The notes beneath the pieces were generated by a model. It was not told the DNA's origin. It saw nothing but the letters and a program-made list of their open reading frames with translations, and searched no databases. From positions 1-55,134 of the IMG/VR virus record IMGVR_UViG_3300032294_001470: a stretch of DNA of 55,134 nt; one strand, written 5' to 3'. Of the stretch, positions 4,825 through 52,690 are shown in pieces (position 1 is the stretch's first letter; every line of letters starts with the position of its first letter). Position numbers and translations under genes: made by a program. Source of the DNA: a virus. Lineage: Duplodnaviria; Caudoviricetes.

Positions 4825-5508
4825 ATGAATTACGGACAAGAATTTCAATCGTATTACACGAAACATTTAGGTAAACCATCATCCCATTTGGATTACTTCG
4901 AAAAACAAATTGAATCCTCAATGACACCATACATCTTGGAAGAAAGAGAAATGAGAGTTACTCAAATGGATATCTTCTCAAGATTAATGAGAGACCGAGT
5001 GTTATGGGTTGCAGGACCTGTTGATGACAGAATGTCAACTATAGTTCAAGCTCAATTAATGTTCTTGGATTCTTCAGATAAATCGGACATTACAATGCAC
5101 ATTGATAGTCCCGGAGGAAGTGTGAAATCAGGTTTATCTATGGTAGATGTGATGGAATACATCTCTTGTGACATCAGAACCGTGAATACTGGTATGGCGG
5201 CATCGATGGGTTCAGTATTGTTAGGTGCGGGAACCAAAGGAAAGCGTTCATCATTGAGATTTTCCAAAACAATGTTACATCAATCATCAGGAGGTGCTGG
5301 TGGAAATATTCAAGACGCTCGTATCAATATGATTGAGTGGGAAAAGACTAATAATATTCTTTTTGAATTATTAGGTTCTTATTGTGGCAAATCTGCAGAA
5401 CAAGTTATGACAGATGCAACTCGAGATTTATGGTTGGACGCTCAAGAAGCGTTAGATTATGGTATTATCGATGAAATTGTTAAACCAAAAGAAAAAGTGA
5501 GTAAGTAA
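4825..5508 (+). CDS. clpP: ATP-dependent Clp protease proteolytic subunit
   Basis: MDIFSRLM, QLMFL, IDSPGGSV, GMAASMGS (catalytic Ser), MLHQ, RDLW, YGIID. Confidence 0.96.
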   Translation: MNYGQEFQSYYTKHLGKPSSHLDYFEKQIESSMTPYILEEREMRVTQMDIFSRLMRDRVLWVAGPVDDRMSTIVQAQLMFLDSSDKSDITMHIDSPGGSVKSGLSMVDVMEYISCDIRTVNTGMAASMGSVLLGAGTKGKRSSLRFSKTMLHQSSGGAGGNIQDARINMIEWEKTNNILFELLGSYCGKSAEQVMTDATRDLWLDAQEALDYGIIDEIVKPKEKVSK

Positions 5509-22808: not shown

Positions 22809-25217
22809 ATGAAATACATCTTAAATTTAGACAATGTGTCTTTGAAAGACATTAATATTGTTGGAGGAAAAAACGCATCATTAGGTGAAATGTTACAACA
22901 CCTAAAAAAATTAGAAATTAAAGTCCCTAATGGATTTGCAATAACTATTGATGGTTATTATGACTTCATAAAACATAATAACTTAGATAAACCAATCAGA
23001 GAACTTATTGGGAATCTAAAAGAAAATGACATTATTGAGCTTAGAAGAACCGGTTTAACGGTAAGACAATTAATTCGTAATGGAGTTTTTCCTGAACAAT
23101 TAAAAAACGAAATACAAACAAAATATCGTGAGTTGTCCGAAATTTATGGTCAAACAATGACTGATGTTGCGGTGAGGTCATCGGCAACTGCAGAAGATTT
23201 GCCCGATGCTTCTTTTGCGGGTCAACAAGAGACTTTCTTAAATGTTAGAGGTTCGGAATCAATCTTAGAATCAGTTAGAAATTGTTTTGCGTCTTTGTTC
23301 ACCGATAGAGCCATTTCATATAGAAATTCTTTTGGTTATGACCATTTCGATGTTGGGTTGTCGGTATGTATCCAAAAAATGGTCCGGTCAGATTTATCTT
23401 CATCCGGAGTCGCATTTTCATTAGACACAGAAAGTGGGTTTAAAGATGTTGTTATGATTAATGGTTCATATGGTTTAGGAGAAATGATAGTTCAAGGAAC
23501 AATATCACCAGATGAATTTATTGTTTTTAAACCATTATTGGAAAAAGGTTTTAGTTCCATAATTGAAAAAAAATTAGGGAATAAAGACCAAAAAATGATT
23601 TATGGTGAAGACCACGGCAAGTTAACCAAAATCGTTAATATTGATGATGAACATAGAAACAATTTTTGTATTAACGATAAACAAGTATTAGAAATCGCAA
23701 AATGGGTTACATCAATTGAAAAATACTACTCAGAATTAAAAGGACATTGGTGTCCAATGGATGTGGAATGGGCGATTGACGGATTAACTAATGAGTTATA
23801 TATTGTTCAGGCTAGACCTGAAACAATCCACTCAAGGAAAAAAAGAGATATATTAACCGAATATACAATTAATACTGAAAATTTAAAACCTATTGTTAAA
23901 GGTAGTGCTGTTGGAGATAAAATCACTAATGGAGAAGTAACTATTATGTATTCATTAGATGGTAGAGACGGGTCGTTAGATTGTTCTGAATTTGTTGAGG
24001 GAAGTGTCTTAGTAACTGATATGACAGACCCTGATTGGGAACCTATAATGAAAAAAGCGTCTGCGATTATAACAAATCGAGGAGGTAGGACATGTCACGC
24101 AGCGATTGTTGCAAGAGAAATGGGATTACCGGCAATTGTTGGAACAATGAATGCTACGGAAATATTAAAAAATAATCAAAAGGTGACGGTATCTTGTGGA
24201 GAAGGAGATGTTGGTTTTGTATATGATGGTTTCATTGATTATGAGAAAATTGAAACAAATTTGGACGATTTACCTGAAGTTTCAACACCAATTATGTTGA
24301 ATGTTGCATCTCCCGAAATCGCATTTAAGTTTTCAAATCTTCCAAACGCAGGTGTTGGTTTGGCAAGAGAAGAATTCATAATAAATAACTATATAAAAGC
24401 ACATCCAATGGCTTTATTAAAACATAAAGAAATTGGAGATGAGGAATTAACAAAACAAATTAATTCAATTATTAAAGGGTATGATGATGAAGAAACTTTC
24501 TTCATTAAAAAATTAAGTTATGGTATTGCAAGAATTGCCGCAGCGTTTTACCCCAATAAAGTTATTGTTAGACTTTCAGACTTTAAATCAAATGAATATA
24601 AAAATCTTTTAGGTGGGTCGTATTTTGAACCGGATGAAGAAAACCCAATGATTGGTTGGAGAGGAGCATCAAGATACTATTCCGACAAATATAAAGAAGC
24701 TTTTGGTATGGAAATTAAGGCAATAAAAAGAGTTAGGGAAAAAATGGGATTTGATAATGTCGTTGTTATGATACCTTTTTGTAGGACCATAGATGAGTTA
24801 TTGAAAGTTTATAAGGTTATGGAATCTTATGGGTTAAAACGAGGTGAGAAAGGGTTAGAAGTTTATTTAATGGCCGAATTACCATCAAACATTTTTATGG
24901 CGGAAGAATTTTCAGAATATGTGGACGGATTCTCAATTGGGTCAAACGATTTAACACAATTAGTGTTAGGTTTAGATAGGGATTCCGCACTTGTTTCTCC
25001 AATTTACGATGAAAGAAATCTTGCGGTTAAAAGAGCGATATCTCATTTAATAAAAATTGGAAAGAAAACAAATACGAAAGTTGGAATTTGTGGTCAAGGT
25101 CCGTCTGATTTCCCTGATTTCGCAGAATTCTTGGTAGAAGAAGGTATTGATAGTATCTCAATAACACCGGATTCATTATTAAAAACATTAAAAACTTTAA
25201 GTAAATTAAAAAAATAA
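22809..25217 (+). CDS. ppsA: Phosphoenolpyruvate synthase (pyruvate, water dikinase)
   Basis: VGGKNASLGEM, VAVRSSATAEDLPDASFAGQQET, QARPET, GGRTCHAAIVARE (phospho-His), ENPMIGWRG, FSIGSNDLTQ, GICGQ. Confidence 0.97.
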   Translation: MKYILNLDNVSLKDINIVGGKNASLGEMLQHLKKLEIKVPNGFAITIDGYYDFIKHNNLDKPIRELIGNLKENDIIELRRTGLTVRQLIRNGVFPEQLKNEIQTKYRELSEIYGQTMTDVAVRSSATAEDLPDASFAGQQETFLNVRGSESILESVRNCFASLFTDRAISYRNSFGYDHFDVGLSVCIQKMVRSDLSSSGVAFSLDTESGFKDVVMINGSYGLGEMIVQGTISPDEFIVFKPLLEKGFSSIIEKKLGNKDQKMIYGEDHGKLTKIVNIDDEHRNNFCINDKQVLEIAKWVTSIEKYYSELKGHWCPMDVEWAIDGLTNELYIVQARPETIHSRKKRDILTEYTINTENLKPIVKGSAVGDKITNGEVTIMYSLDGRDGSLDCSEFVEGSVLVTDMTDPDWEPIMKKASAIITNRGGRTCHAAIVAREMGLPAIVGTMNATEILKNNQKVTVSCGEGDVGFVYDGFIDYEKIETNLDDLPEVSTPIMLNVASPEIAFKFSNLPNAGVGLAREEFIINNYIKAHPMALLKHKEIGDEELTKQINSIIKGYDDEETFFIKKLSYGIARIAAAFYPNKVIVRLSDFKSNEYKNLLGGSYFEPDEENPMIGWRGASRYYSDKYKEAFGMEIKAIKRVREKMGFDNVVVMIPFCRTIDELLKVYKVMESYGLKRGEKGLEVYLMAELPSNIFMAEEFSEYVDGFSIGSNDLTQLVLGLDRDSALVSPIYDERNLAVKRAISHLIKIGKKTNTKVGICGQGPSDFPDFAEFLVEEGIDSISITPDSLLKTLKTLSKLKK

Positions 25218-27598: not shown

Positions 27599-28021
27599 TT
27601 AAAATGGTATTGATAACCCAACACCATATCTAAACCCTTTTGAGTAATTTAATCCCAAAGAAAAATCCAAAGTTTTTTTATTTCTAGTTATCATTCTAAT
27701 TGGGTATAATTTAACCCAAACATCCGGAATTAATTCTAAATCAATTTGTCTATTTTCAATAAATGTTCCAGCCATAATACTAAATGAATTACTTTTATCG
27801 ACATATGAAAGACCTAATCTATTCATAATTGATAATGGAGTGGTATATGTATATGGTTGTGGGAATGATGTGGTGTAATATCCCCCAACATATAACCCAA
27901 CTTGTTTAAAGTTATATGAAGCAACTAAAGAGTTTTGGTTTGGGATATATAAAATATCGGTTTGTTGAGATTTTACAGATAATGTTACCGCTAAGAAAAC
28001 TAATGTTATTATTTTTTTCAT
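27599..28021 (-). CDS. Small outer-membrane beta-barrel-like protein
   Basis: Sec signal, alternating beta strands, C-terminal YGVGLSIPF. Confidence 0.6.
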   Translation of the reverse strand: MKKIITLVFLAVTLSVKSQQTDILYIPNQNSLVASYNFKQVGLYVGGYYTTSFPQPYTYTTPLSIMNRLGLSYVDKSNSFSIMAGTFIENRQIDLELIPDVWVKLYPIRMITRNKKTLDFSLGLNYSKGFRYGVGLSIPF

Positions 28022-30033: not shown

Positions 30034-30069
30034 ATTTTATTTTACTTATAAATATACTAACATGTATCT

Positions 30070-31173
30070 TTATTGGGAAGAAGATGATAAGTCAACATCA
30101 CCTAATACAATATACCTTAAATTTAACACAATTGGTGATGTTGTAAAATTAACATCAAAAAAAGATGATGAATTTATAGTATTAAAATTATTCAATGTTA
30201 TGGTTGAATAGGTCGATGATGTGAACCATAACACTTCGGTTAATGGATTCATCCCCGTTAAACTTCTTGCAAGTAGATATCCATCATCAATATAAACTCT
30301 TCCATTTTTGTTAATATCACCAGCTCTCATCTTCGGTCCGGTATTCAATACCAATCCCGGGTTTAATACCGGAGGAACGCTAACATTTCTCGCTTCGTTC
30401 AATAATAAAGATAAATCGTTGTTAGTTAATGTTGTTGAGAATGATGGGATTATCCTATAAGTCATATTATATTCGTTTGGTTTCAATGAGTAATTTCCAC
30501 TTATATCAACATTACTACTATCAATTAATGTGGTGGTTGCGCCATTAATTTTGAATAATTTTAATTTTGGTCGATTAACCAACCCTGATGGTATGGAAAG
30601 ATTTCCACTTATTGTTTCGGTTGGGGGTAAGTTTGGATTTGGTTGGGCCCCAGCAATTGTGGTCTTAAAATCAAAAGTATTACCATAAGGATAAGTTCCA
30701 CATATTACAGGAGAACCGGAATATTGCATAATAAATCTCATAAAAACGGGTCCGTTAAAGACTGTCGTTGGAACAACAAATGTTGAAGTTATTGTTTTGG
30801 TTCCTGTCCAAGAAGTGTTGGTGCTATGAACTAATTCTCCAGCATCTGTTAAAACTCCATTCCCGTTAAAATCAATCCATAATTTGAAATATTCCATGTA
30901 ATTACCATTTGTAACTGCGGTATATGAAATGGATATGGTTTGACCTGCGGTAATGGTTGGGACTGCCGTTCCATTGGTGTAGTTAAAATAACCTGCCGGA
31001 TTACCTCCGGATGCTGCGGTAAATCCATTACTACCTGCATATGTTTGTCCGTTTATCGTAACACTGGAAACATACTCACAACAAAATGTTGTTGGGTGAC
31101 TAGTACATAATGAAGTTTGAGAGTGTACGAAACTACTTATCGATAATAAAATGAATAACAAATATTTCATCAT
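30070..31173 (-). CDS. Secreted GEVED-domain + dockerin-like protein
   Basis: Sec signal; WIDFNGNGVLTDAGELV...MRF (GEVED-like); GDINKNGRVYIDDGYLL (dockerin-like Ca loop); terminal GDVDLS. Confidence 0.75.
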   Translation of the reverse strand: MMKYLLFILLSISSFVHSQTSLCTSHPTTFCCEYVSSVTINGQTYAGSNGFTAASGGNPAGYFNYTNGTAVPTITAGQTISISYTAVTNGNYMEYFKLWIDFNGNGVLTDAGELVHSTNTSWTGTKTITSTFVVPTTVFNGPVFMRFIMQYSGSPVICGTYPYGNTFDFKTTIAGAQPNPNLPPTETISGNLSIPSGLVNRPKLKLFKINGATTTLIDSSNVDISGNYSLKPNEYNMTYRIIPSFSTTLTNNDLSLLLNEARNVSVPPVLNPGLVLNTGPKMRAGDINKNGRVYIDDGYLLARSLTGMNPLTEVLWFTSSTYSTITLNNFNTINSSSFFDVNFTTSPIVLNLRYIVLGDVDLSSSSQ

Positions 31174-32804
31174 AAATTAATTTTTGAACCAATTAGGAAA
31201 AACGAAAGAACCGGAAAGTCGGGATTGGTACTCGTGTTTAGTTTATAATTCATATTGACTTTAAATCTTTTTGAAAATTGGTAATCAACACTTGTCCCTA
31301 TAAAGGCACTGAATGTTCTGTCCGAAACACTGACTTTATCAACAGAGGAATACATCAATGGTGTGGATATTACATACAGTTCAGGTGAGAGTATCATTCT
31401 TTTCCCGACTTTAAATGGTTTAGTGTAAAATGCTGTCATCGCAGGACTTAAATATAAATTCACATCTTCAGGGCTTTTAGTAATAGAACCGCTAACATTA
31501 AACCCCGTAATTCCATATTTTCCTGCATTTAGAATCATACTATACCCTAAAAAACTCATAAGATTACCATATGAATAAACTCCAGTTAAATTCAAATTAT
31601 GAATTAATTTCAATTTTTTGTTCTTACTAAAGTGCATTTTGGTGTATCTCCCTGTTAATGCGAATTGTTTGAAATTTAACCAAATCATCGAGTTTAATCC
31701 CCAACTTGAGGTTCCAGTCATCGATGATTGTGACATTCCAACATTAATGATTGGTGTAAAACTTCTGTCCATATTTTGGGCACTTGTTAAATCAGATGAA
31801 ACTATGATTGGATTAGACCTACTATTACTTTTACCACCTCCTTTACTACCTCCTGAACCTTTATCATTGTTCGCATCAGTTGTCATTGTTGTTGTCACCG
31901 CAACTTCACTACCTTGACCACCTGTTTCACTACCTGTTTGACCACCTGTTTGACCACCTTCACTCTTGGTTGTTTCTTGAGTATTAGTTGAATTTGAAGT
32001 TGTTGATGTATTGGTTGTCTCTGTAGTGGTTGAGTTATTCTTTACACTTGGTCCACCATTCCCTTCAGTTTTTGTCGTATTATTTCCACTACCTTGACCA
32101 CCTGCTTGACCACCGCTTTTTGTTGTGATTGTTGTTGAATTTCCACCGCTTTTTGTTGTGATTGTTGTTGAATTTCCACCGCTTTTTGTTGTGCTTGTTG
32201 TTGAATTTCCTCCGACTTGTGTCGTATTTGTTGTTGAATTTCCTCCACCTTGTGTTGTACTTGTGGGTGATGGAGTATTATTCGAAGAAAAGACACTTGA
32301 GTTAAATGTTGACGGAAATGGGACGCCGGATGTAGAAATTGTTGGTGGTGGTTGTGAACTACTTTTTTTCTCATTTTTTTCATTTTTCGATGTTTTTTCA
32401 TCCGAATTTGAACTCAAATCCGTATTCACTAACATTCCTGATTCCGCGTTAACTTGTCCCATAATACTTCCTACTACACTTTGAATTGTGTTCCCAATTA
32501 TTTGGGAGGTTATTTGGTTTCTAATTATTGTTGTGGTTTGAATCGAACATGGTGTTAATCTCCTATATTCGGTATAGACTTGGTTAATCCAAGTGGCAAA
32601 AACACCACTGATAACATCATCAGCGGTGAAATATTTTTGTTGACCTAAAAATGACACTAATGAACCATTTCCACTTTGTATTGGAAGGTTGAATTGTGTC
32701 ATTTCTTTAGTGCAAGGGTCTACAAAAGTGTAGGTAAATGTTTGACCAATCGCGGTGATATTTGTAAATAAAAGTATCAATAAGATTGGTAATATTTTTA
32801 ACAT
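31170..32804 (-). CDS. Secreted protein with Ser/Thr/Gly linker and C-terminal beta-barrel-like domain
   Basis: Sec signal; low-complexity middle; ~210-aa C-terminus of alternating beta strands ending GSKINL. Confidence 0.7.
   Translation of the reverse strand: MLKILPILLILLFTNITAIGQTFTYTFVDPCTKEMTQFNLPIQSGNGSLVSFLGQQKYFTADDVISGVFATWINQVYTEYRRLTPCSIQTTTIIRNQITSQIIGNTIQSVVGSIMGQVNAESGMLVNTDLSSNSDEKTSKNEKNEKKSSSQPPPTISTSGVPFPSTFNSSVFSSNNTPSPTSTTQGGGNSTTNTTQVGGNSTTSTTKSGGNSTTITTKSGGNSTTITTKSGGQAGGQGSGNNTTKTEGNGGPSVKNNSTTTETTNTSTTSNSTNTQETTKSEGGQTGGQTGSETGGQGSEVAVTTTMTTDANNDKGSGGSKGGGKSNSRSNPIIVSSDLTSAQNMDRSFTPIINVGMSQSSMTGTSSWGLNSMIWLNFKQFALTGRYTKMHFSKNKKLKLIHNLNLTGVYSYGNLMSFLGYSMILNAGKYGITGFNVSGSITKSPEDVNLYLSPAMTAFYTKPFKVGKRMILSPELYVISTPLMYSSVDKVSVSDRTFSAFIGTSVDYQFSKRFKVNMNYKLNTSTNPDFPVLSFFLIGSKINL
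32110..32263. repeat. 33-bp in-frame tandem repeat (~4.5 degenerate copies)
   Basis: Unit CCACCGCTTTTTGTTGTGATTGTTGTTGAATTT at 32110, 32143, 32176 and 32209 (diverging); encodes GGNSTTITTKS. Confidence 0.9.
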
Positions 32805-32806
32805 TT

Positions 32807-33520
32807 TTAATGAGTAAAGATTTGTTTTTTAATCATCCTTGTCACGATTTTAGAACATGCACTTTCCAATGACTTTTTGGTTGTTATACCAATTGTTGAT
32901 TGATTGAATTTTACATCAGTCAAATTATCGTCATTTAATAAAGTCATTTCTCTTGTTGTTGACGCTTCTCCTAATCCTGATGCGGTGAAATAAGCTCCGG
33001 TTTCAGCATTAACAAATTTAACTTGGAGTCCTAACCGAGTTGTCAAGGTATTCTTGACACTTCCTTTAAGTTTTATGGTTTCATCTTCACTAACACTAAA
33101 ATCATAAACCTCAACATAAACAAAGTAGTGAGCCAATCTAATCTTACCTCTACCATTTAATGTGTCCTGTGAGATTCCTGCTTGAGATGCTTGAAATTGT
33201 TTCACCATTCTGTTCTTAATTTCCGTTTTGTCTTCAGTAAAAATAAATCTGTCGGTAAATTCCAAATATTCGACTACGATGTTTGTCAAACCTAACCCAA
33301 CCCTTTTATCTTTTAACTCGGGATATGACTCATATAATTCAGGAGTTACTCCAATGTTTAACAATTGAATTGGTATCGGTTTTCCGTTATATTCAGGTAA
33401 TGTGTCCATTGACGCATTCTTTTCGAAAGATGCTCGGTATTGTTCTGTCTTAATGGTTCCAACTTGAGAGTACGCCACAAAACTTATCATACTCGCTAAA
33501 ATCAATATTATTTTTTTCAT
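32807..33520 (-). CDS. CsgG/HfaB-like exported protein
   Basis: Sec signal MKKIILILAS; GLTNIVVEYL..TDRF...E, AHYFVY.EV.DF and LQVKFVNAETG match the CsgG-family pattern. No lipobox Cys. Confidence 0.7.
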   Translation of the reverse strand: MKKIILILASMISFVAYSQVGTIKTEQYRASFEKNASMDTLPEYNGKPIPIQLLNIGVTPELYESYPELKDKRVGLGLTNIVVEYLEFTDRFIFTEDKTEIKNRMVKQFQASQAGISQDTLNGRGKIRLAHYFVYVEVYDFSVSEDETIKLKGSVKNTLTTRLGLQVKFVNAETGAYFTASGLGEASTTREMTLLNDDNLTDVKFNQSTIGITTKKSLESACSKIVTRMIKKQIFTH

Positions 33521-33521
33521 A

Positions 33522-34109
33522 TTATTCTTCAATTGGTTTAATTAGTCCACAAACCAAACATTCTTCGTCACCATCACCATCTGAGTCACCCCAAACATGT
33601 TGACAATTTCTGTGTGGAAAATATTCGTCAATAACACCATCATTATCGAAATCTAATCCGTCCATAACACCATCTCCATCTTCATCAACTTCAACACCAA
33701 TTTTTGTAACTTGGTCATTTACTTGGACAGGTTGTCCAACTTCTTCACTTGTCGGTAAAACTAATGGTTCTATTGACATTGGAACGATTGGGTTACTTGG
33801 CATATCTGCCGTGTTTGAAAGAGATGTACCATCCTCCTCATCCATTTTCTGGACTAGCATTTTATCTTTATCGGTATCACTGAACCAGTAATCGATAATT
33901 TTACCATAAGAACCAATAAATGCACCTAATAAAAGAAGTAGTAATTCTTTCCACTCGGTTGACATTGGTGTTTTCCACATTATGGCTCCGAAGATTCCTC
34001 CTATAATAAGGATAAACCCACCTAATACCATGGCAGTAATATACCATCTTCTTTTCATCATCGAATTTAGAAGTTCTTTAAATCCTGTTGCTTGCTGATT
34101 GTTTACCAT
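33522..34109 (-). CDS. Two-TM membrane protein with acidic Ca-binding-like loops
   Basis: Two TM helices; DEDGDGVMDGLDFDNDGVIDE and DSDGDGDE; C-terminal CxH...CxxC. Confidence 0.75.
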   Translation of the reverse strand: MVNNQQATGFKELLNSMMKRRWYITAMVLGGFILIIGGIFGAIMWKTPMSTEWKELLLLLLGAFIGSYGKIIDYWFSDTDKDKMLVQKMDEEDGTSLSNTADMPSNPIVPMSIEPLVLPTSEEVGQPVQVNDQVTKIGVEVDEDGDGVMDGLDFDNDGVIDEYFPHRNCQHVWGDSDGDGDEECLVCGLIKPIEE

Positions 34110-34432
34110 TGTGGTTCTTTAGTTTTTAATTCGTCTTGTTTAGGTTCAGCTTTTTTTGTTTCTTGTGGTGCTGATTTTTCAACAACTTTTTCTTTGATGA
34201 TAGTTGTTGTTCCACCTGCGGTTGCAGTTTGTTGTTGTGTGTTGTTGATGTTAATAACTGGTGCCGCTTGTTGAACCGGATGTGGTTCTGACGATTCTTC
34301 TTTTCCACCGAAAAGTTGAGTACTTAACCATACTCCTCCCGCAGTTACAAGAGTGGTTAAGGTTGCAATGATTGTTTTTTTAAGACCTGACCAAGTTCCG
34401 TCATTTGTCTCTACATTTTGTTCTTCTGACAT
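34103..34432 (-). CDS. Single-TM protein
   Basis: TM TIIATLTTLVTAGGVWL; Q/T/P-rich tail. Confidence 0.75.
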   Translation of the reverse strand: MSEEQNVETNDGTWSGLKKTIIATLTTLVTAGGVWLSTQLFGGKEESSEPHPVQQAAPVININNTQQQTATAGGTTTIIKEKVVEKSAPQETKKAEPKQDELKTKEPQW

Positions 34433-34436
34433 TTTT

Positions 34437-36341
34437 TTAAAGTTTAATAAAAGGTTTAGTTATTTGTTTATTATCATCGGACAAAACCAATAGATAGTTT
34501 CCTTGGGGTAGTTCAGGATGGTTTATATTCTTTGTGATTTTTGTATTAGTACCATCTGAATTAATATATCCTAAGTCAATCATTAGTTTGCCTTGATAAT
34601 CATAAATAGATGCATTCATGTTTGTGTTAGGTAATAATTCAAATTCTGTTGTAAAATTACCTGTATTTGGATTAGGGTAAATACTAATCGTTGGCTCTGT
34701 GATATTACTCACTACTTGTGTCATTTTATACATCATCACAACTCTTTGTGATGCTAACACAATATTCAAATGGTCTCCTTCTTTATCTGAAGCATCCATT
34801 AATTGTCTGATAACAACATCGGTTGAAATATCATCCGTTGATGTTTTGGCTAAAAATTTTAATTTAAAAGGGGTCGCTAACCCTTGTAGCGACCCATTTT
34901 TTTGATTATTCATTGCTCCGAATCTAACAATACCATTTACATCGTCATTGGTTACATATTGTAACCAAGGACCTTGTAAATTCGATACTATCTCATCGAA
35001 TGAAACTTTATTGACATCATATTTTATCTCAAATTGTAAACCATTACTAAGTTCACCATTTGTTGAGATGTTAAATGGAACATACATTGGTTCACCCACA
35101 GAATAAACATCAGGAATATTCACATCAAATTGTCCTTTGTAAATCGCTGCGAATATTTCAGTTGTTCCGTTAAATACCGGTGAAGAGTGTGTTCTATCAA
35201 CATCACCTAAAACAAAATATTTGATATCTAAACTTAAATTTGTTAATCCAACACTATCATAAATGAAAGTTCCTCTATTAGAGTAATTTACCCAATCAGT
35301 CCATTGGTTACTTCCTAACACAAGAGAATCATATTCATCTTTACTAAAGACATTTATTAATTTTGAAGTGTCGATAGGTTTTAACCCTGAAACTGATGCG
35401 TATATCCCATAAGGGTCACCACCATCTAATTTAGTGTTTAAGTTAATATCACCAATTAAAAATCCTAAACCATGTTTCAAATAAAGGTGTCCATAAGTTT
35501 GATTAACATCCGTATTAACATACTCATTATATGATTTGATTGCGTCTGAAATTGTAACAGCGTTGTCTCTAATATAATTCAAACTATCTTTAGGGAATCT
35601 AACTTCAATCTTATATTTAGTATTCTCATCAACATTATTTAAAGTATATGTTCCATTGATGTTTGGTTTAGTTTGTGACACCAAGTTTCCGGTATTTTTC
35701 TCATAACAATAGATTGTCGGAAGAAGTCCTGTTGTCATTGTTGTCGGGAACCAAACTTTACCTGAAATTGTTAAGTTACCTAACAACTTAACTCTTTGTT
35801 TTTGAATGTTAAGACTTGCGATGTTATCACCTATTGAAGTTCCGTCCACTTTAAACATTCTCGACCAATTCACAATAATTGAATCTGATTCATAATTTGA
35901 TTCAACATTATTGATAATGAATTTGTTATGGATAATATACCCATTTGACGAGAAATTCGCGGCACTTCCTGAAGCGAATATTAGGTAATTACGACCTACT
36001 TTCCAGTTAGTGTCTGAAGTATAATTATATATCCCTGTTGCTGAGGTATATGAACTATACTTGTAGTTATTCCATTCTTGATAATCTAAGGTTGGAGTGT
36101 TGGTTGAATACATTGCGTCAACCGATGTTGAAATGTGCGTAAATAGGGTTTTCTTAAATTGAAAATCGATTTGAAAGGTTCTAATATCGACACCTGACGC
36201 TGGTTTATAATACCATGCGACATCTATCGTATCACCCCTTCTAACCGTCTTTAATTGTTGAAAATGACCTATTTCCGGTGTTTGTGAGTATCCAATTACA
36301 CTAAAAAGAGCAATGAATACCACGGAAATTAGTTTTTTCAT
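34437..36341 (-). CDS. T9SS-sorted protein with cohesin-like and dockerin-like modules
   Basis: Sec signal; cohesin-like GDTIDV..FQIDFQF and VPFNI..GLQFEIKYD; dockerin-like GDINLNTKLDGGD; C-terminal IYPNPN...IYDYQGK...LPQGNYLLVL...KPFIKL (type A CTD). Confidence 0.8.
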   Translation of the reverse strand: MKKLISVVFIALFSVIGYSQTPEIGHFQQLKTVRRGDTIDVAWYYKPASGVDIRTFQIDFQFKKTLFTHISTSVDAMYSTNTPTLDYQEWNNYKYSSYTSATGIYNYTSDTNWKVGRNYLIFASGSAANFSSNGYIIHNKFIINNVESNYESDSIIVNWSRMFKVDGTSIGDNIASLNIQKQRVKLLGNLTISGKVWFPTTMTTGLLPTIYCYEKNTGNLVSQTKPNINGTYTLNNVDENTKYKIEVRFPKDSLNYIRDNAVTISDAIKSYNEYVNTDVNQTYGHLYLKHGLGFLIGDINLNTKLDGGDPYGIYASVSGLKPIDTSKLINVFSKDEYDSLVLGSNQWTDWVNYSNRGTFIYDSVGLTNLSLDIKYFVLGDVDRTHSSPVFNGTTEIFAAIYKGQFDVNIPDVYSVGEPMYVPFNISTNGELSNGLQFEIKYDVNKVSFDEIVSNLQGPWLQYVTNDDVNGIVRFGAMNNQKNGSLQGLATPFKLKFLAKTSTDDISTDVVIRQLMDASDKEGDHLNIVLASQRVVMMYKMTQVVSNITEPTISIYPNPNTGNFTTEFELLPNTNMNASIYDYQGKLMIDLGYINSDGTNTKITKNINHPELPQGNYLLVLSDDNKQITKPFIKL

Positions 36342-36838
36342 CTTTTAAATAAATTAATGATTAATGTCTCTGAGGACTTTTTTATAACATTCGAAACTGA
36401 TGTTTGATTAAAACCACCATTTTCTGATATTATTAGTGTTGACATGGAAATCTCGGAGGATTTACCACTGGTAATGGTTTCTCTAATTTTTTTACCATTT
36501 TTATCATATAGATAACCTTTAACCCTTAAGATTGTTTCATTCTCATCTTTATGAAAAACTGAAACTCCGGAGTTTGTTTGAATTATATCAAAATAAAGTA
36601 ATTCAACTTTAATCACATAATCCGCGTCTTTAATAGAATCGGTTACATCATAATTCATTTCCTGTAAATTCTCCAAAAGAATGTTTTTAACTCCAAAAGT
36701 CAAATTTCGGTTGTTAGATAGTTCTCCAATCTCAATCTTATTTTCAATTGATTGAATAAAAACTTTTTTAGGAGATTCTTGTTGAGTGAAGGATGCGAGC
36801 ATCACGATGGCTAGCATCGAAGTGAATAATTTTAACAT
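36338..36838 (-). CDS. Exported protein, CsgG/LptE-like alpha-beta fold
   Basis: Signal peptide; VFIQSIEN, FGVKNILLENL, ADYVIKVELLYFD; shares 'FNQ(T/S)...KKS.E' tail with 32807-33520. Confidence 0.6.
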   Translation of the reverse strand: MLKLFTSMLAIVMLASFTQQESPKKVFIQSIENKIEIGELSNNRNLTFGVKNILLENLQEMNYDVTDSIKDADYVIKVELLYFDIIQTNSGVSVFHKDENETILRVKGYLYDKNGKKIRETITSGKSSEISMSTLIISENGGFNQTSVSNVIKKSSETLIINLFKR

Positions 36839-36859: not shown

Positions 36860-36896
36860 ATAAATATTTCAAAACTTATTGTTGATAGATATTTAT
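36860..36896. promoter_or_regulatory. Back-to-back ATATTTAT motifs for the divergent envelope operon and endolysin
   Basis: ATAAATAT at 36860-36867 (ATATTTAT on minus) and ATATTTAT at 36889-36896 (plus). Confidence 0.6.
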
Positions 36897-36911
36897 TATA
36901 AAAAATATATT

Positions 36912-37760
36912 ATGTTATTAAAAATTGGTTCTAAAGGAGATGATGTAAAAAAACTCCAAACAAAATTAGGTCTTGTATCTGACGGATATTATGGTGCATT
37001 AACTGCAACTGCAGTGAAAAAATGGCAGGCAGCTAACGGATTAACCGCCGATGGTATTGTTGGTGCCGGAACTTGGAGTAAAATGTTTGGAACACCGACT
37101 CAAGAAACTACAATAGTTAAAGAAGATAAAATCATTCCTCAACCTGTTACTTCAGTTGGAGGATTAAAAATTGATAGATTAAGAGGTCATATTCCTGATT
37201 CAGTTATCTCACAAATACCTGATACAGCGGCAAAATTTAACATTACAAATAACTTGAGATTAGCTCACTTTTTGGCACAATGTGGTCATGAATCAGGTGG
37301 GTTCAAAGCGGTTAGTGAGAATGTTAACTATTCCGCGGCAGGTCTTAAGGGTATTTTTGGAAAATACTTTCCCGGTAATTTAGCGGAATCATACGCTCGT
37401 AACCCACAAAAAATCGCAAGTAGAGTTTATGGTGGAAGAATGGGTAATGGCCCTGAAGCAACTGGAGACGGATATAAATTCCGTGGCCGCGGCTTTATAC
37501 AATTAACAGGAAAAAACAATTACACACAATTTTCCAAATTTATTAGTGAGGATTGTGTTGCTAATCCTGATTTGGTCGCAACCAAATATCCTTTGGCGTC
37601 AGCCGCATTCTTCTTCGATTCAAACAAACTTTGGGCGATTTGTGACAAAGGGGCAGATAACGCAACTATAACTGCGGTAACAAAACGAGTTAATGGCGGG
37701 ACAATAGGATTGGCCGATAGAATTAAACATTTCAACGAATATTATAAATTACTATCGTAA
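36912..37760 (+). CDS. Endolysin: peptidoglycan-binding domain + glycoside hydrolase family 19
   Basis: LKIGSKGDDVKKLQ..DG.YG..T..AV..WQ..GL.ADGIVG; AHFLAQCGHESGG, FRGRGFIQLTGKNNY, TKRVNGG. Start moved to ATG 36912. Confidence 0.92.
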   Translation: MLLKIGSKGDDVKKLQTKLGLVSDGYYGALTATAVKKWQAANGLTADGIVGAGTWSKMFGTPTQETTIVKEDKIIPQPVTSVGGLKIDRLRGHIPDSVISQIPDTAAKFNITNNLRLAHFLAQCGHESGGFKAVSENVNYSAAGLKGIFGKYFPGNLAESYARNPQKIASRVYGGRMGNGPEATGDGYKFRGRGFIQLTGKNNYTQFSKFISEDCVANPDLVATKYPLASAAFFFDSNKLWAICDKGADNATITAVTKRVNGGTIGLADRIKHFNEYYKLLS

Positions 37761-38176
37761 TGCAAGAAGGACCGGTTATATATAATAGTGAATTTTTACC
37801 AAATGTAGAAATTGCCGTTCTATTTGAGGGTAATTTTCAATACGAAAAGATGAAACCTTTTTTTGACGAATTTGGGTATGGGTTTATGGTACCAGGCAAT
37901 AATTTAGTTGTTATTGATGGAGAACAATTGCTTGACTCAAGAGGTAATAACCTATTGAAATTCATTGAAGCTCACGAAGTTTCTCATATTGTTATGGGTC
38001 ACGACGGACCAAGAAGTGACGATGAGGAGTTGGACGCTGATTTAGGTGCGTATATCTTATTGGAGAAATATGGTTACATTGACGACATTAAAGTATTGTT
38101 AAGAGAATTTAAAAATCGTCACGGAGTTAGATTTGACGCCTCTTTATTAGAAAGAGTGAAAAAATATTTCACTTAA
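37760..38176 (+). CDS. HExxH metallopeptidase-like protein
   Basis: AHEVSHIVMGH...EELDAD; TAATG-coupled to endolysin. Confidence 0.7.
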   Translation: MQEGPVIYNSEFLPNVEIAVLFEGNFQYEKMKPFFDEFGYGFMVPGNNLVVIDGEQLLDSRGNNLLKFIEAHEVSHIVMGHDGPRSDDEELDADLGAYILLEKYGYIDDIKVLLREFKNRHGVRFDASLLERVKKYFT

Positions 38177-43744: not shown

Positions 43745-44029
43745 ATGGATAATAGACGGAGGTTGTATAGATTAATTGAAAAGTATCTGAATGATGTCAA
43801 AAAAGATGTTGTGGAGTTATTTTATGGTGAAGGTTCAACCATAAAAATTCACACAATTAATTTTGGGATAACAAATAATACAATCTTAATAGAAGGGATT
43901 GTTATTTTGGGAAACTCAATAAATGAAAATGTTGTTGATAATTCCTTAGCCGAAGTTTTAATTAGAGAGTCGATGGTTTATTTTTTCCCTGAACACCAAA
44001 TTAAGACTTATATTAGATTTGATATCTAA
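43745..44029 (+). CDS. Hypothetical protein
   Basis: 94 aa. Confidence 0.7.
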   Translation: MDNRRRLYRLIEKYLNDVKKDVVELFYGEGSTIKIHTINFGITNNTILIEGIVILGNSINENVVDNSLAEVLIRESMVYFFPEHQIKTYIRFDI

Positions 44030-44337
44030 GTGATATTTCTATTTATCATTGCAGTCATAAGTTCACTATTTTCTTTTTGTAAGAATTCAACTTTAACTGT
44101 AAGTTGGGCAACTTTTTCGGTTAACTCTAATATGGTTTTTCTCATGTTATCTTTTTCGTCACTACTCGCAACTAATAACCCCTCCAATTTGGAAATTCTG
44201 TCCCTACAATCATTACGAATAAAATCATCGTCTCTTTCTTTCCTATCAGCTCTTTTCTCATAAAATCTCCAAGCACTTGCTGACCCCAAAACCGTTACCG
44301 CGGTAACCAGTACAGTCCAAATCGATTGATTCTCCAT
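44026..44337 (-). CDS. Single-TM coiled-coil protein (possibly lysis-related)
   Basis: N-terminal TM then heptad-rich region; ATATTTAT upstream. Confidence 0.7.
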   Translation of the reverse strand: MENQSIWTVLVTAVTVLGSASAWRFYEKRADRKERDDDFIRNDCRDRISKLEGLLVASSDEKDNMRKTILELTEKVAQLTVKVEFLQKENSELMTAMINRNIT

Positions 44338-47039: not shown

Positions 47040-47402
47040 TTATTCAATATATTTGACAGGATTACCAAATTTTTCGATAAACCATAATCTGAATGGTTCT
47101 TTCCATTCATCATTGAATAGTGAATTCAATTGTTTTTCATAAGTTGTCTCAACCACAACTAAAGGACAATTGGACTGGGCATTTGAACCAAAATATTCAC
47201 AACCATACCATCTAAAACAAACACCATCATCTATATAGTCTCCAATATAATATTCAATTAAGTTTGGGTCTTCATATGATTCCATTTCTTCAGGGTCATA
47301 CATCATAGGATTAGTCCAATTGATTTCATCCACCGGAAATAAACCTTCAAGGTAATTAGTTACAAAATTTTGTAGTTTGGATTCACTTATAACATACTTC
47401 AT
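47040..47402 (-). CDS. Hypothetical protein with 'ISESKL' leader
   Basis: C-terminal WF..KF..PV motif shared with 52745-53410 and 50914-51168. Confidence 0.75.
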   Translation of the reverse strand: MKYVISESKLQNFVTNYLEGLFPVDEINWTNPMMYDPEEMESYEDPNLIEYYIGDYIDDGVCFRWYGCEYFGSNAQSNCPLVVVETTYEKQLNSLFNDEWKEPFRLWFIEKFGNPVKYIE

Positions 47403-47848
47403 ATTTTTAAATATGCGGTATTTCGGTTAATTTCTCTTTCAACATCTCTGGCTTTGATTGATTCTCTCTTATCATGAGTCTTTTTACCTCTTGCTAACGC
47501 GATTTCGACCTTAATTAACCCCTTTTCATTCAAAAAAACTCGATATGGGACAATTGTAAGTCCCTTAATCAATTCTTTTTGTAATTTAGTCAATTCTCTC
47601 CTTTTTAAGAGGATTTTTCGGTCTTGGGTTGATTTATGGGTGTAATTTGTTGGTATTTCCGTGATATTAGCATTTCTTAAGTATAATTCACCATTAATAA
47701 AAGTACAAAAAGATTCTGATAACGATATTTTTCCATCTCGAATTGATTTAACTTCGGAACCCATTAATACAATACCGCCAATTTCAGTTCGAATGAACTC
47801 GTATTCAAACTTCGCTTTTTTATTTACAATATTAACTTGATTTTTCAT
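47399..47848 (-). CDS. smpB: SsrA-binding protein SmpB
   Basis: NKKAKFEY, GIVL.GSEVKSIR, RKILL.RRE, GLTIVP, KVEIALARGKK.HDKRE.IK.RD..RE. Confidence 0.95.
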   Translation of the reverse strand: MKNQVNIVNKKAKFEYEFIRTEIGGIVLMGSEVKSIRDGKISLSESFCTFINGELYLRNANITEIPTNYTHKSTQDRKILLKRRELTKLQKELIKGLTIVPYRVFLNEKGLIKVEIALARGKKTHDKRESIKARDVEREINRNTAYLKI

Positions 47849-49389: not shown

Positions 49390-49818
49390 TTATATAACTT
49401 TGATTGAGTGGATTTTGTCTCCTTGTTCGATTTGGTCTACAATATCGATACCTTCAACAACTTTACCGAAACATGTATGGTTTCCGTCCAAGTGTTGTGT
49501 TCCTTGTCTGTTGTGACAGATGAAGAACTGAGAACCACCAGTGTTTCTTCCAGCGTGTGCCATTGATAATACACCTTTATCGTGGAATTGTTTTGGTGCT
49601 GTTACCTCACATTCGATTGTATATCCCGGACCTCCATTACCAACTCCGTTTGGACATCCTCCTTGAGCTACGAACCCGGGAATAACTCTATGGAAATTCA
49701 ACCCATCATAGAATTTTTTTTCAATTAAACTTTTGAAATTTTCGGTTGTGATTGGTGTTTCGTCATATAATTCACAAATCATATCACCTTTGCTTGTAGA
49801 AATTTTTACTTTACTCAT
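49390..49818 (-). CDS. Cyclophilin-type peptidyl-prolyl cis-trans isomerase
   Basis: FYDGLNFHRVIPGFVAQGG, LSMAHAG, GGSQFFI, HLDGNHTCFGKV; terminator at ~49355-49385. Confidence 0.95.
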   Translation of the reverse strand: MSKVKISTSKGDMICELYDETPITTENFKSLIEKKFYDGLNFHRVIPGFVAQGGCPNGVGNGGPGYTIECEVTAPKQFHDKGVLSMAHAGRNTGGSQFFICHNRQGTQHLDGNHTCFGKVVEGIDIVDQIEQGDKIHSIKVI

Positions 49819-52276: not shown

Positions 52277-52690
52277 TTAAAATCTTCCAGCACCCTTATA
52301 ACTTCTATTATAAGGATGTTCATTTAAATCACTTACTTTCACCCCTTCTCTCTTATTGGATGAATGGACAAATTTATTATTACCAATGTAAATTCCACAA
52401 TGCCATCTTGATGGTGATGTTTTACTATTAAAAAATACTATATCACCTATTTCTAAACTATCTTTGGTTATTCGTTTTGTTTGGTGCCACTGTTTCCAAG
52501 CAACATCGGCCAATTGTTTATTATAAACATCTTTATATAATCGTTTGGTGAATTGAGAGCAATCGATTCCTGATTTAGAACGACCACCTAAACGATAAGG
52601 AGTTCCTTTCCATTCATTGATAAAACTATCCAATGTTGTTTGACCAAAAGAAATATTGGTAACTAAAATTAATATTAAAAATAATTTCAT
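52277..52690 (-). CDS. NlpC/P60 peptidoglycan endopeptidase, exported
   Basis: Signal peptide; WKGTPYRLGG, GIDCS, GDIVFF, HCGIYIG..KFVHSS. Confidence 0.92.
   Translation of the reverse strand: MKLFLILILVTNISFGQTTLDSFINEWKGTPYRLGGRSKSGIDCSQFTKRLYKDVYNKQLADVAWKQWHQTKRITKDSLEIGDIVFFNSKTSPSRWHCGIYIGNNKFVHSSNKREGVKVSDLNEHPYNRSYKGAGRF

Follow-up and report, generated by a model that had tools for sequence, protein, structure and literature searches.

A conserved phage cassette with a divergent CsgG-family protein, a predicted outer-membrane barrel and a tentative link to endolysin-dependent release

We analysed a 55,134-bp stretch of viral DNA (IMG/VR record IMGVR_UViG_3300032294_001470; Duplodnaviria, Caudoviricetes), called the window below, and in it a block of seven minus-strand genes, numbered g1 to g7 in order of transcription from position 36838 down to 30070. 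This block is a conserved phage-specific cassette and not a recent host capture, a conclusion that we regard as well supported. Its most conserved product, g5, is a divergent CsgG-family protein, and its partners include a predicted outer-membrane barrel (g6), a predicted cargo protein of the type IX secretion system (T9SS; g2) and two predicted inner-membrane proteins (g3 and g4). The explanation that we rank first, with a probability of about 0.4, is an envelope-spanning assembly that is coupled to the endolysin step and gates or opens the outer envelope at release. Phage-encoded CsgG/CsgF clusters have already been published; what is new here is this cassette as a variant of the phage CsgG-type envelope clusters.

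The window is a whole virus record, classed as linear and with a CheckV completeness of 19%. Since contigs of its relatives reach 321 kb, it is a piece of a large phage. A sequence-only reading of the window had taken the block to be phage-borne, in keeping with the virus record and with its Clp-type head-maturation protease, T4-type RNA ligase and endolysin; thymidylate synthase and others add to these phage genes. The source is probably a large lake-water phage of Flavobacterium-type bacteria, as judged from a cultured relative and from a metagenome-assembled genome (MAG) contig, both described below.

The seven open reading frames (ORFs) are co-directional, span 6.8 kb and are separated by −4, +4, −7, −11, +2 and −4 bases from g1 to g7 (Table 1). 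Coordinates, gaps and motif position all match the earlier description of seven contiguous or overlapping genes behind one ATATTTAT motif. In g1, g2, g5, g6 and g7 an N-terminal hydrophobic core is followed by Gln. With a crude script applied to distinct relatives only, we found Gln after the signal peptide in 48 of 52 g1, 55 of 56 g2, 57 of 57 g5, 55 of 55 g6 and 33 of 33 g7 sequences. Such a conserved Gln agrees with the Q-rule of Bacteroidetes for substrates of signal peptidase I (PMC5837995; PMC10653852). The protein g4 has two hydrophobic stretches, of which the first passes the hydropathy threshold and the second was read by eye, and g3 has a single, weakly hydrophobic one. The claim that every gene encodes a Sec signal or a transmembrane (TM) helix thus stands, with these reservations for g3 and g4, and the prediction of five products with Bacteroidota-style signal peptides and two inner-membrane proteins is well supported.

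Relatives of g5 are encoded by 545 viral contigs, and 6462 protein clusters at 90% identity match g5. Counts out of 80 refer below to the best 80 of these contigs, and counts out of 77 to the loci with a g2 among them. Synteny in related phages was looked for, and the same gene order was found in these 80 loci, with g1 in 76, g2 in 77, g3 in 65, g4 in 49, g5 in 80, g6 in 79 and g7 in 45. All seven genes are present in 37 loci, and the commonest shorter form (16 loci) lacks g4 and g7. Order and overlaps are kept across loci whose g5 is only 64–70% identical. At least three other genes are shared with the window by 41 of the 80 loci; 12 share none of the flanking genes and yet keep the block. 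Median identity to the window over 57 loci is 68% for g5, the most conserved gene of the block, versus 48% for g1 and 43% for g6. Freshwater metagenomes from at least eight studies contain near-identical DNA.

The sequence-only reading had named an ordinary, recently captured host operon as a possible source of the block, and we looked for one. A collection with one genome per species, queried with the single g5 protein (which finds close relatives only), gave only two full-length matches; each lies on a short MAG contig, and one of these contigs is binned as Flavobacterium. A profile search through 151 genomes of the family of that Flavobacterium MAG gave two matches, both on loci of less than 4 kb. 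Because the matches are so few and lie on such short contigs, we reject a recent host operon.

The same module occurs in a cultured phage, Flavobacterium phage vB_FspM_immuto (NC_055915; Immutovirus; 160 kb; host Flavobacterium sp. LMO8), as gp013–gp018. Its gp017 shares 54.8% identity with g5, gp016 is the counterpart of g3, and gp018 matches the N-terminal domain of g6. The two ends of g2, sorting tag included, are matched by gp014 and gp015, so that g2 is split in two, and gp015 is annotated as cohesin domain-containing. A C-type lectin protein, gp013, sits upstream, versus the downstream slot in the window. No match to g1, g4 or the g7 tail was found in immuto at E ≤ 1e-3. All but two of the block products are annotated as hypothetical, and none of the literature naming immuto, judged from listings, concerns the gp013–gp018 block. 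Judging by titles and abstracts, we found no published description of the cassette; supplements of immuto or flavophage papers could annotate single genes.

General searches gave little. Megablast of the block DNA against GenBank phages returned no match, PADLOC defence families matched none of the seven block proteins, and the sole PHROGs match among the seven was that of g2 to a family without known function. Profile searches of the g5, g1 and g2 families against PDB sequences returned nothing significant (best E 0.29, 0.69 and 0.4, respectively).

The assignment of g5 to the CsgG family is well supported by distant homologues and by a structural model. The protein itself has no direct Pfam match at E ≤ 0.1. 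Searching 1.84 billion representatives yielded 232 relatives. Among 39 distant homologues scanned (phmmer E 3.6e-28 to 1.9e-9), 19 match Pfam CsgG (PF03783) at E ≤ 0.01 and 16 pass its 20.8-bit cut-off; three of the homologues carry fused caspase domains and two a fused Ser/Thr kinase. The AlphaFold2 model (predicted local distance difference test score, pLDDT, 81.7) contains one long hairpin at residues 136–175. With Foldseek, its best match is CsgG (4uv3_A, E 3.7e-8), and VIA-align against CsgG entries gives Z 13.7, 13.7 and 13.6, the best with 182 residues aligned at a root-mean-square deviation (rmsd) of 3.5. Other folds score lower (VIA Z: Cj1090c 10.5, PelC 9.8, FlgT 9.1, LptE about 9, TolB-N about 8, TraT 8.0). 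Among viral structures, the g5 model is matched best by a phage protein that bears the name CsgG (E 9.1e-9).

For the comparison of single residues, we take the constriction loop of E. coli CsgG (Y51, N55, F56) and the numbering of its TM hairpins from the structure literature. Y70-P71 of g5 align with Y51-P52 of this loop, and none of the 15 aligned rows departs from this Tyr-Pro pair. The position of N55 is variable in the family and is Lys in g5, and F56 faces a gap. Both TM-hairpin positions are occupied in g5; the TM1 segment is five residues shorter and charged or polar, and the TM2 segment is of equal length. The first 225 residues of g5 contain no Cys and thus no lipobox, and g1 likewise has no lipobox Cys. 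The distant g5 homologues are bacterial-type lipoproteins with an xGC lipobox, and a crude script places a Cys close to where the signal peptide ends in 22 of 57 distinct g5 relatives.

The sequence-only reading had proposed two CsgG-like proteins. This holds for g5, through its fold and the Pfam matches of its distant homologues; for g1 the likeness comes only through a profile–profile match to g5 (hhalign against the g5 family profile: 89% probability, E 2.2e-6, 122 columns), and the direct BLASTP comparison of g1 with g5 is not significant (E 0.12). Among 26 g1 relatives, 12 weakly match Pfam Lipoprotein_16/YajG (best 1.9e-4) and three TraT, all below cut-off, and Atlas features give LptE/DUF4410 at 0.90. 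We infer that g1 is a small alpha/beta protein of a CsgG/LptE/YajG-type fold and a distant relative of g5. As the earlier reading had noted, curlin is missing: neither curlin nor CsgE or CsgF families of Pfam match any of the seven block proteins or the 74 other window ORFs that we scanned.

The modelled barrel of g6 is well supported as one of the autotransporter/FapF type, and the earlier description of a linker plus beta-barrel protein was borne out by a disordered stalk and a 12-stranded barrel in the model, Foldseek and VIA-align. The AlphaFold2 model has a mean pLDDT of 59.3, with mostly 64–88 in the structured parts, less than 50 in the linker, and disorder at residues 120–327. VIA-align of the barrel gives EspP at Z 22.2 (238 residues aligned, rmsd 3.2), NalP at 21.6 and FapF at 17.6, and FapF ranks first with Foldseek (5.7e-5). 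The sole long helix of the model (residues 87–126) lies about 200 residues ahead of the barrel, and none lies directly before it. Pfam scans of g6 and 32 relatives returned low-complexity noise only (for example DDHD), and no autotransporter or other family. A CsgF-like start of g6 was also considered; hhalign placed the match at the very N-terminus of CsgF but with 1% probability (E 0.054), and we rejected it. The stalk is encoded by repeats, 4.5 copies of 33 bp at 32110–32258 plus 12-bp units. Among near-identical relatives the length of g6 ranges from 371 to 577 residues with barrels at least 96% identical, and metagenome contigs show in-frame length variants of the stalk, with 12 bp inserted after 31919 and 3 bp deleted at 31935.

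Flavobacterium has a T9SS, and g2 is a predicted type A cargo of this system. It combines a signal peptide with a C-terminal sorting domain that scores above both curated cut-offs (Pfam Por_Secre_tail 6.9e-10, 39.5 bits, cut-off 27; NCBIfam TIGR04183 2.8e-11, 43.2 bits, cut-off 23), as had been recognised from the sequence. The tag was found in 12 of 23 g2 relatives scanned. Pfam Cohesin (PF00963) matches 14 of 23 members of the g2 family (best 5.3e-11); the g2 of the window has no match of its own at E ≤ 0.1. The GEVED domain recognised in g7 is confirmed by Pfam at 2.3e-12, and g7 carries no T9SS tag. Residues 187–366 of g7 are homologous to residues 191–387 of g2 (BLASTP 5e-8), and by our reading of the sequences this common tail holds a calcium (Ca) loop of the type DxNxNGxxxxDD. 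Among eight relatives in the g7 slot, seven carry a Lectin_C head on the same tail (five above cut-off) and one has a sub-threshold match to Dockerin_1 (E 0.0022, 18.6 bits versus a cut-off of 22.9). The last gene, g7, is an accessory slot with a swappable head on a constant tail, GEVED here and a C-type lectin in most relatives.

Tag and g7 occur together in 43 of the 77 loci and are both missing from 29, where g2 ends before the tag; five loci have the tag alone and none has g7 without it. This pattern fits a dependence of g7 on the export of g2, and it is a weak indication. On the maximum-likelihood tree of g5 the tag-less state needs two changes, of which well-supported branches force only one, so that the co-occurrence rests on one or two evolutionary events and weighs little as independent evidence. 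Surface display through the T9SS, which the sequence-only reading had proposed, is therefore indicated by the tag in the window and is not part of the core: since 29 of 77 loci have neither tag nor g7, it is an add-on. The core consists of g1, a tag-less g2, g3, g5 and g6.

The two predicted inner-membrane proteins have no family match, for g3 in Pfam, PHROGs or PADLOC and for g4 in Pfam or PHROGs. In a 13-sequence alignment, the bitopic g3 shows a conserved N-terminus, a Gly/Thr-rich TM segment, a low-complexity tail rich in Q, T, K, E and P, and a conserved C-terminal (E/A)P(K/Q/L)W. In g4, two TM helices are followed by a juxtamembrane stretch that hardly varies, by a variable linker and then by acidic loops, with the motifs EIDEDGDGVMDGLDFDxDG and HRxCxHVWGDxDGDGxxECLxCG. 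These contain the DxDGDG loops of Ca type that had been described for the two-TM protein, which are read directly in its sequence, and a Cys/His cluster. The two-TM N-terminal part of g4 (43–60% identical) also occurs in six loci without g5 (L108, L110, L113, L114, L146 and L148). Five of these have no other module gene, and L148 also has a partial g1 match. We take g4 to be an accessory part by its distribution. A role of g4 as a holin tied to the endolysin was considered; only two of the six g5-less copies (L146 and L148) lie near an endolysin.

A role at lysis is suggested by the position of the endolysin gene (Table 1), which in the window has its likely start at an ATG at 36909, encodes no signal peptide and is divergent from g1. 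The sequence-only reading had noted this divergence; it holds for the lineage of the window (5 of 80 loci), and in 53 of 80 the endolysin is instead co-directional and directly adjacent. Counting as adjacent an endolysin within 300 bp of the block or less, we found one in 58 of 80 loci: on the strand of the block it lies upstream in 30 and downstream in 23, and on the opposite strand it lies upstream in 5. No endolysin is visible in 18 of 80 loci, some of them truncated at a contig end. Four changes of endolysin position are needed on a FastTree tree of g5, and the adjacency has thus outlasted several rearrangements. Since the endolysin is co-directional and adjacent in most loci, we consider a link to lysis at least as likely as pure surface display. 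The mostly co-directional endolysin, the cohesin in the g2 family, the tail common to g2 and g7 and the GEVED/lectin head swap all go beyond the sequence-only reading.

Two further ORFs were noted. Directly after the endolysin, 37760–38176 on the plus strand encodes 138 residues with an HEVSH motif and a weak Peptidase_M48 match (E 0.0033, below cut-off), and occurs in 7 of 80 loci. At 44026–44337 on the minus strand, a 103-residue ORF with a weak Phage_holin_10 match (E 9.7e-4, 19.6 bits versus a cut-off of 27) is a possible holin candidate about 6 kb from the endolysin.

We propose that the cassette products would assemble across the envelope of the infected cell. In this model g3, plus g4 where present, would sit in the inner membrane, and next to the g6 barrel g1 and g5 would form rings, either within the outer membrane or beneath it. 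In the version found in the window, g2 would be exported by the T9SS of the host, and g7 would dock on g2 via the common tail and the cohesin. The assembly would act on the outer membrane at the endolysin step, gating or opening the outer envelope, and the binding head would be optional. We rank this release model highest because of the retained endolysin linkage, the parts in every envelope layer and a published proposal for lysis by phage CsgG/CsgF. The topologies of the inner-membrane parts, one TM helix with the N-terminus inside and two TM helices, are known in lysis proteins and also count in its favour. The published proposal is that of Buchholz et al. 2022 (PMC9004378), whose article suggests a role in lysis regulation for the CsgG/CsgF of phage Melnitz.

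Several points weigh against release as the function. Seven genes and 6.8 kb go far beyond the known lysis accessories. The cohesin, the lectin/GEVED heads and the T9SS tag suggest surface binding instead of membrane rupture, and the hairpin segments predicted for g5, shorter and more polar than those of CsgG, do not establish a membrane pore. No holin or spanin family of PHROGs or Pfam matches a block protein, and g1 and g5 are not o-spanin-like lipoproteins because they have no lipobox here. The immuto block stands among nucleotide-metabolism and small genes, with the endolysin about 7.7 kb away. Conversely, when 80 loci were selected for a similar endolysin, a g5 lay within 9 kb in 41 of them but not in the other 39, which implies that this type of endolysin works without the cassette; one of these g5-less loci (L152) has small TM genes around the endolysin. 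Evidence for expression is also slight. Two lake metatranscriptome libraries, both of one study, contain short contigs that map to g1, g2, g3, g5, g6 and the endolysin, and some of these contigs span the g6/g5, g3/g2 and g2/g1 junctions. These contigs are mostly 90–95% alike, their strand, ends and level are not readable and the parts that they leave uncovered are uninformative, so that they are a weak sign of block expression and do not prove transcription.

A nearly as likely explanation, itself tentative, is that the phage re-dresses the surface of the infected cell without any part in lysis. A T9SS-exported cohesin scaffold and an outer-membrane anchor would present an exchangeable carbohydrate-binding head, either to exclude superinfecting phages or to make the cell adhere to particles or to its sister cells. 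The latter has been called 'sibling capture' by Zaragoza-Solas et al. 2020, who proposed it for curli-type clusters of phages (PMC7029224). The cohesin in 14 of 23 and the tag in 12 of 23 g2 relatives, the constant tail common to g2 and g7 on which g7 carries either a GEVED or a C-type lectin head, the hypervariable stalk of g6, the strict co-occurrence of tag and g7, and the location of the immuto block away from the endolysin all agree with it. Yet 29 of 77 loci lack tag and g7, so that T9SS display is not the core function, and the co-occurrence reflects one or two evolutionary events. The dockerin assignment is weak, with a single sub-threshold match among eight relatives, and Buchholz et al. 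(PMC9004378) observed no clumping with Melnitz. Re-dressing would also leave the retained adjacency to the endolysin unexplained.

We consider it rather unlikely that the cassette is an outer-membrane secretion device, in which a ring of the CsgG family, a barrel of the FapF/autotransporter type or both would export an unfolded phage polypeptide. The substrate could be the tag-less g7, which has a Sec signal and no sorting tag, or, by autotransport, g6's own N-terminal domain with its stalk, or another polypeptide. The best structural matches of g5 are to the curli channel CsgG, with the Tyr-Pro of the constriction loop invariant, and the g6 barrel is closest to autotransporter translocators (Z 22.2 and 21.6) and also resembles FapF (17.6). 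The domain order of g6 parallels that of type Va autotransporters and of FapF, the latter as described in PMC5557850. However, such a device lacks a substrate, scans of the block and of 74 further ORFs of the window gave no curlin-like, FapC-like, CsgE or CsgF match, and the match of the g6 N-terminus to CsgF has a probability of only 1%. No helix stands directly before the g6 barrel, unlike in autotransporters and FapF, the hairpins of g5 are short and polar, and loci without g7 retain g5 and g6.

Loose host-derived 'morons' without a joint function, or a recently captured host operon, are very improbable: every domain type has cellular relatives and the distant g5 homologues are bacterial-type lipoproteins, but gene order and overlaps are conserved at 64–70% g5 identity, the genome collection and the Flavobacterium MAG's family hold only the two short MAG contigs and 2 of 151 genomes, and 12 of 80 loci keep the block without any common flanking gene.

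A more specific form of the release model, which we regard as a speculative and improbable one, is an undescribed release machine of Bacteroidota phages. Here the CsgG-type ring and the 12-stranded barrel, tied to the inner-membrane partners, would take the place of spanins in breaching or gating the outer membrane. In the long version of the cassette, the T9SS-displayed cohesin scaffold with its lectin or GEVED head would sense or hold something outside the cell, such as neighbouring cells, glycans or superinfecting phages, and so set the time or place of release.

Table 1. Positions of the cassette genes, their predicted parts and associated features in the window.
Feature	Window position	Strand	Residues	Remark
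ATATTTAT motif	36860–36867	−		22 nt upstream of g1
g1	36338–36838	−	166 aa	
g2	34437–36341	−	634 aa	
g2, signal peptide		−		
g2, N-terminal domain		−		
g2, immunoglobulin-like + Ca-loop module	35181–35771	−	191–387	common with g7
g2, cohesin-type domain	34752–35159	−	about 395–530	boundaries by our reading
g2, T9SS type A sorting domain	34443–34682	−	554–633	
g3	34103–34432	−	109 aa	
g4	33522–34109	−	195 aa	
g5	32807–33532	−	241 aa	database start 4 codons later (ATG at 33520), 237 aa
g6	31170–32804	−	544 aa	
g6, N-terminal domain with conserved Cys pair	32427–32741	−	22–126	after signal peptide
g6, disordered S/T/G/N-rich repeat stalk	31824–32426	−	127–327	about 200 residues
g6, predicted C-terminal 12-stranded outer-membrane barrel	31173–31823	−	328–544	strands 333–541
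g7	30070–31173	−	367 aa	
g7, GEVED head	30664–30891	−	95–170	after signal peptide
g7, conserved tail	30076–30615	−	187–366	common with g2; ends ...LGDVDLSSSSQ
Endolysin, PG_binding_1 + GH19	36879–37760	+		Pfam 3.2e-12 and 3.2e-9; PHROG 181 at 1.1e-70

The ATATTTAT motif has no copy within the block, and the next one (30048–30055, minus strand) lies just past g7 and ahead of the following gene. The window contains 28 copies against 15.5 expected, a number reached in none of 100 shuffles; a sigma-70 scan of the window showed no enrichment (46 versus 39.3 expected). The motif could serve as a phage promoter or in translation initiation. Many copies stand 5–22 nt upstream of starts on the coding strand, for example ahead of the genes starting at 2015, 10227, 27582, 30033, 52262, 52690, 53410, 53855 and 55003. 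Within g2, a perfect palindrome with a 9-bp stem (GGGTCGCTA...TAGCGACCC, 34871–34895) was flagged on both strands by a terminator scan; we set it aside as a terminator since it sits inside the coding sequence.

About 2 kb from the cassette, 27599–28021 on the minus strand encodes 140 residues with a signal peptide ending in ...VKSQQ, an alternating beta-strand-like sequence and a C-terminal Phe. This ORF resembles a small outer-membrane barrel, is present in 20 of 80 loci and has no Pfam or PHROG match. Elsewhere in the window, 22809–25217 on the plus strand encodes an 802-residue protein with all three domains of phosphoenolpyruvate synthase/pyruvate phosphate dikinase (PPDK_N 9.2e-118), by its appearance a phage-borne metabolic gene. 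We also found genes for SmpB (47399–47848, minus strand, 7.7e-46), a cyclophilin-type prolyl isomerase (49390–49818, minus strand, 2.1e-41), a ClpP-type protease (4825–5508, plus strand, 1.8e-55) and an NlpC/P60 peptidase (52277–52690, minus strand, 1.7e-24). Despite the SmpB gene, ARAGORN detected no transfer-messenger RNA in the window and three tRNAs only, at 159–1277.

To our knowledge, how phages of Bacteroidota pass or remodel the outer membrane is poorly known, and canonical spanins are rarely recognised in them. Bartlau et al. 2021 (PMC8776804) annotate only occasional spanin candidates. The cassette described here is widespread, strongly conserved and phage-specific, and it unites parts of four envelope systems that are not known to cooperate, namely a curli-type channel, a barrel of the autotransporter/FapF type, a cohesin and the T9SS.

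Each of these parts can be set against its known counterpart. E. coli CsgG (type VIII secretion; PDB 4uv3, 4uv2 and 6lqh) shares with the g5 model its fold (Z 13.6–13.7, 177–192 residues aligned, rmsd 2.7–3.5), the Tyr-Pro of the constriction loop and segments at both TM-hairpin positions. In contrast to it, g5 is only 13–14% identical, has no lipobox Cys, replaces N55, lacks F56, has a charged TM1 segment five residues shorter and ends without a C-terminal extension; the cassette as a whole has none of the curli partners CsgE, CsgF, CsgA and CsgB by Pfam scans. EspP, NalP and FapF resemble g6 in their C-terminal 12-stranded barrel and in an N-terminal part joined to it via a linker. For FapF, the likeness extends to an N-terminal helical domain, a disordered linker and an autotransporter-like barrel (PMC5557850). 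Unlike all three, g6 has no Pfam match, a linker of about 200 residues made of S/T/G/N repeats, no helix before the barrel, a C-terminal Leu in place of an aromatic residue and no Fap partners. With the cohesin–dockerin scaffolds and T9SS cargo of Bacteroidota, g2 and g7 share the cohesin of the g2 family, the sorting domain and the Ca loop of the common tail. This tail is unlike a canonical tandem dockerin. In further contrast to the scaffolds of Bacteroidota, it is a lytic-type phage that encodes the cassette, and no enzymes are attached to it.

A close parallel to the cassette as a whole is provided by the CsgG/CsgF 'curli pore' clusters of pelagimyophages and of the Methylophilales phage Melnitz (PMC7029224; PMC9004378). 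Like the window, these clusters have a CsgG-family gene without curlin subunits. Their host lacks the system, and lysis regulation, uptake and sibling capture have been proposed as functions. These clusters have recognisable CsgG and CsgF and belong to phages of Proteobacteria, whereas g5 has no direct Pfam match and no CsgF is detectable in the window. The partners are also different here: a 12-stranded barrel, cohesin/T9SS parts, lectin or GEVED heads and two inner-membrane proteins. The cassette adds a second and independent example to the unexplained CsgG clusters known from marine phages, and since a cultured, non-pathogenic pair, immuto and Flavobacterium sp. LMO8, carries the module, its function can be tested directly.

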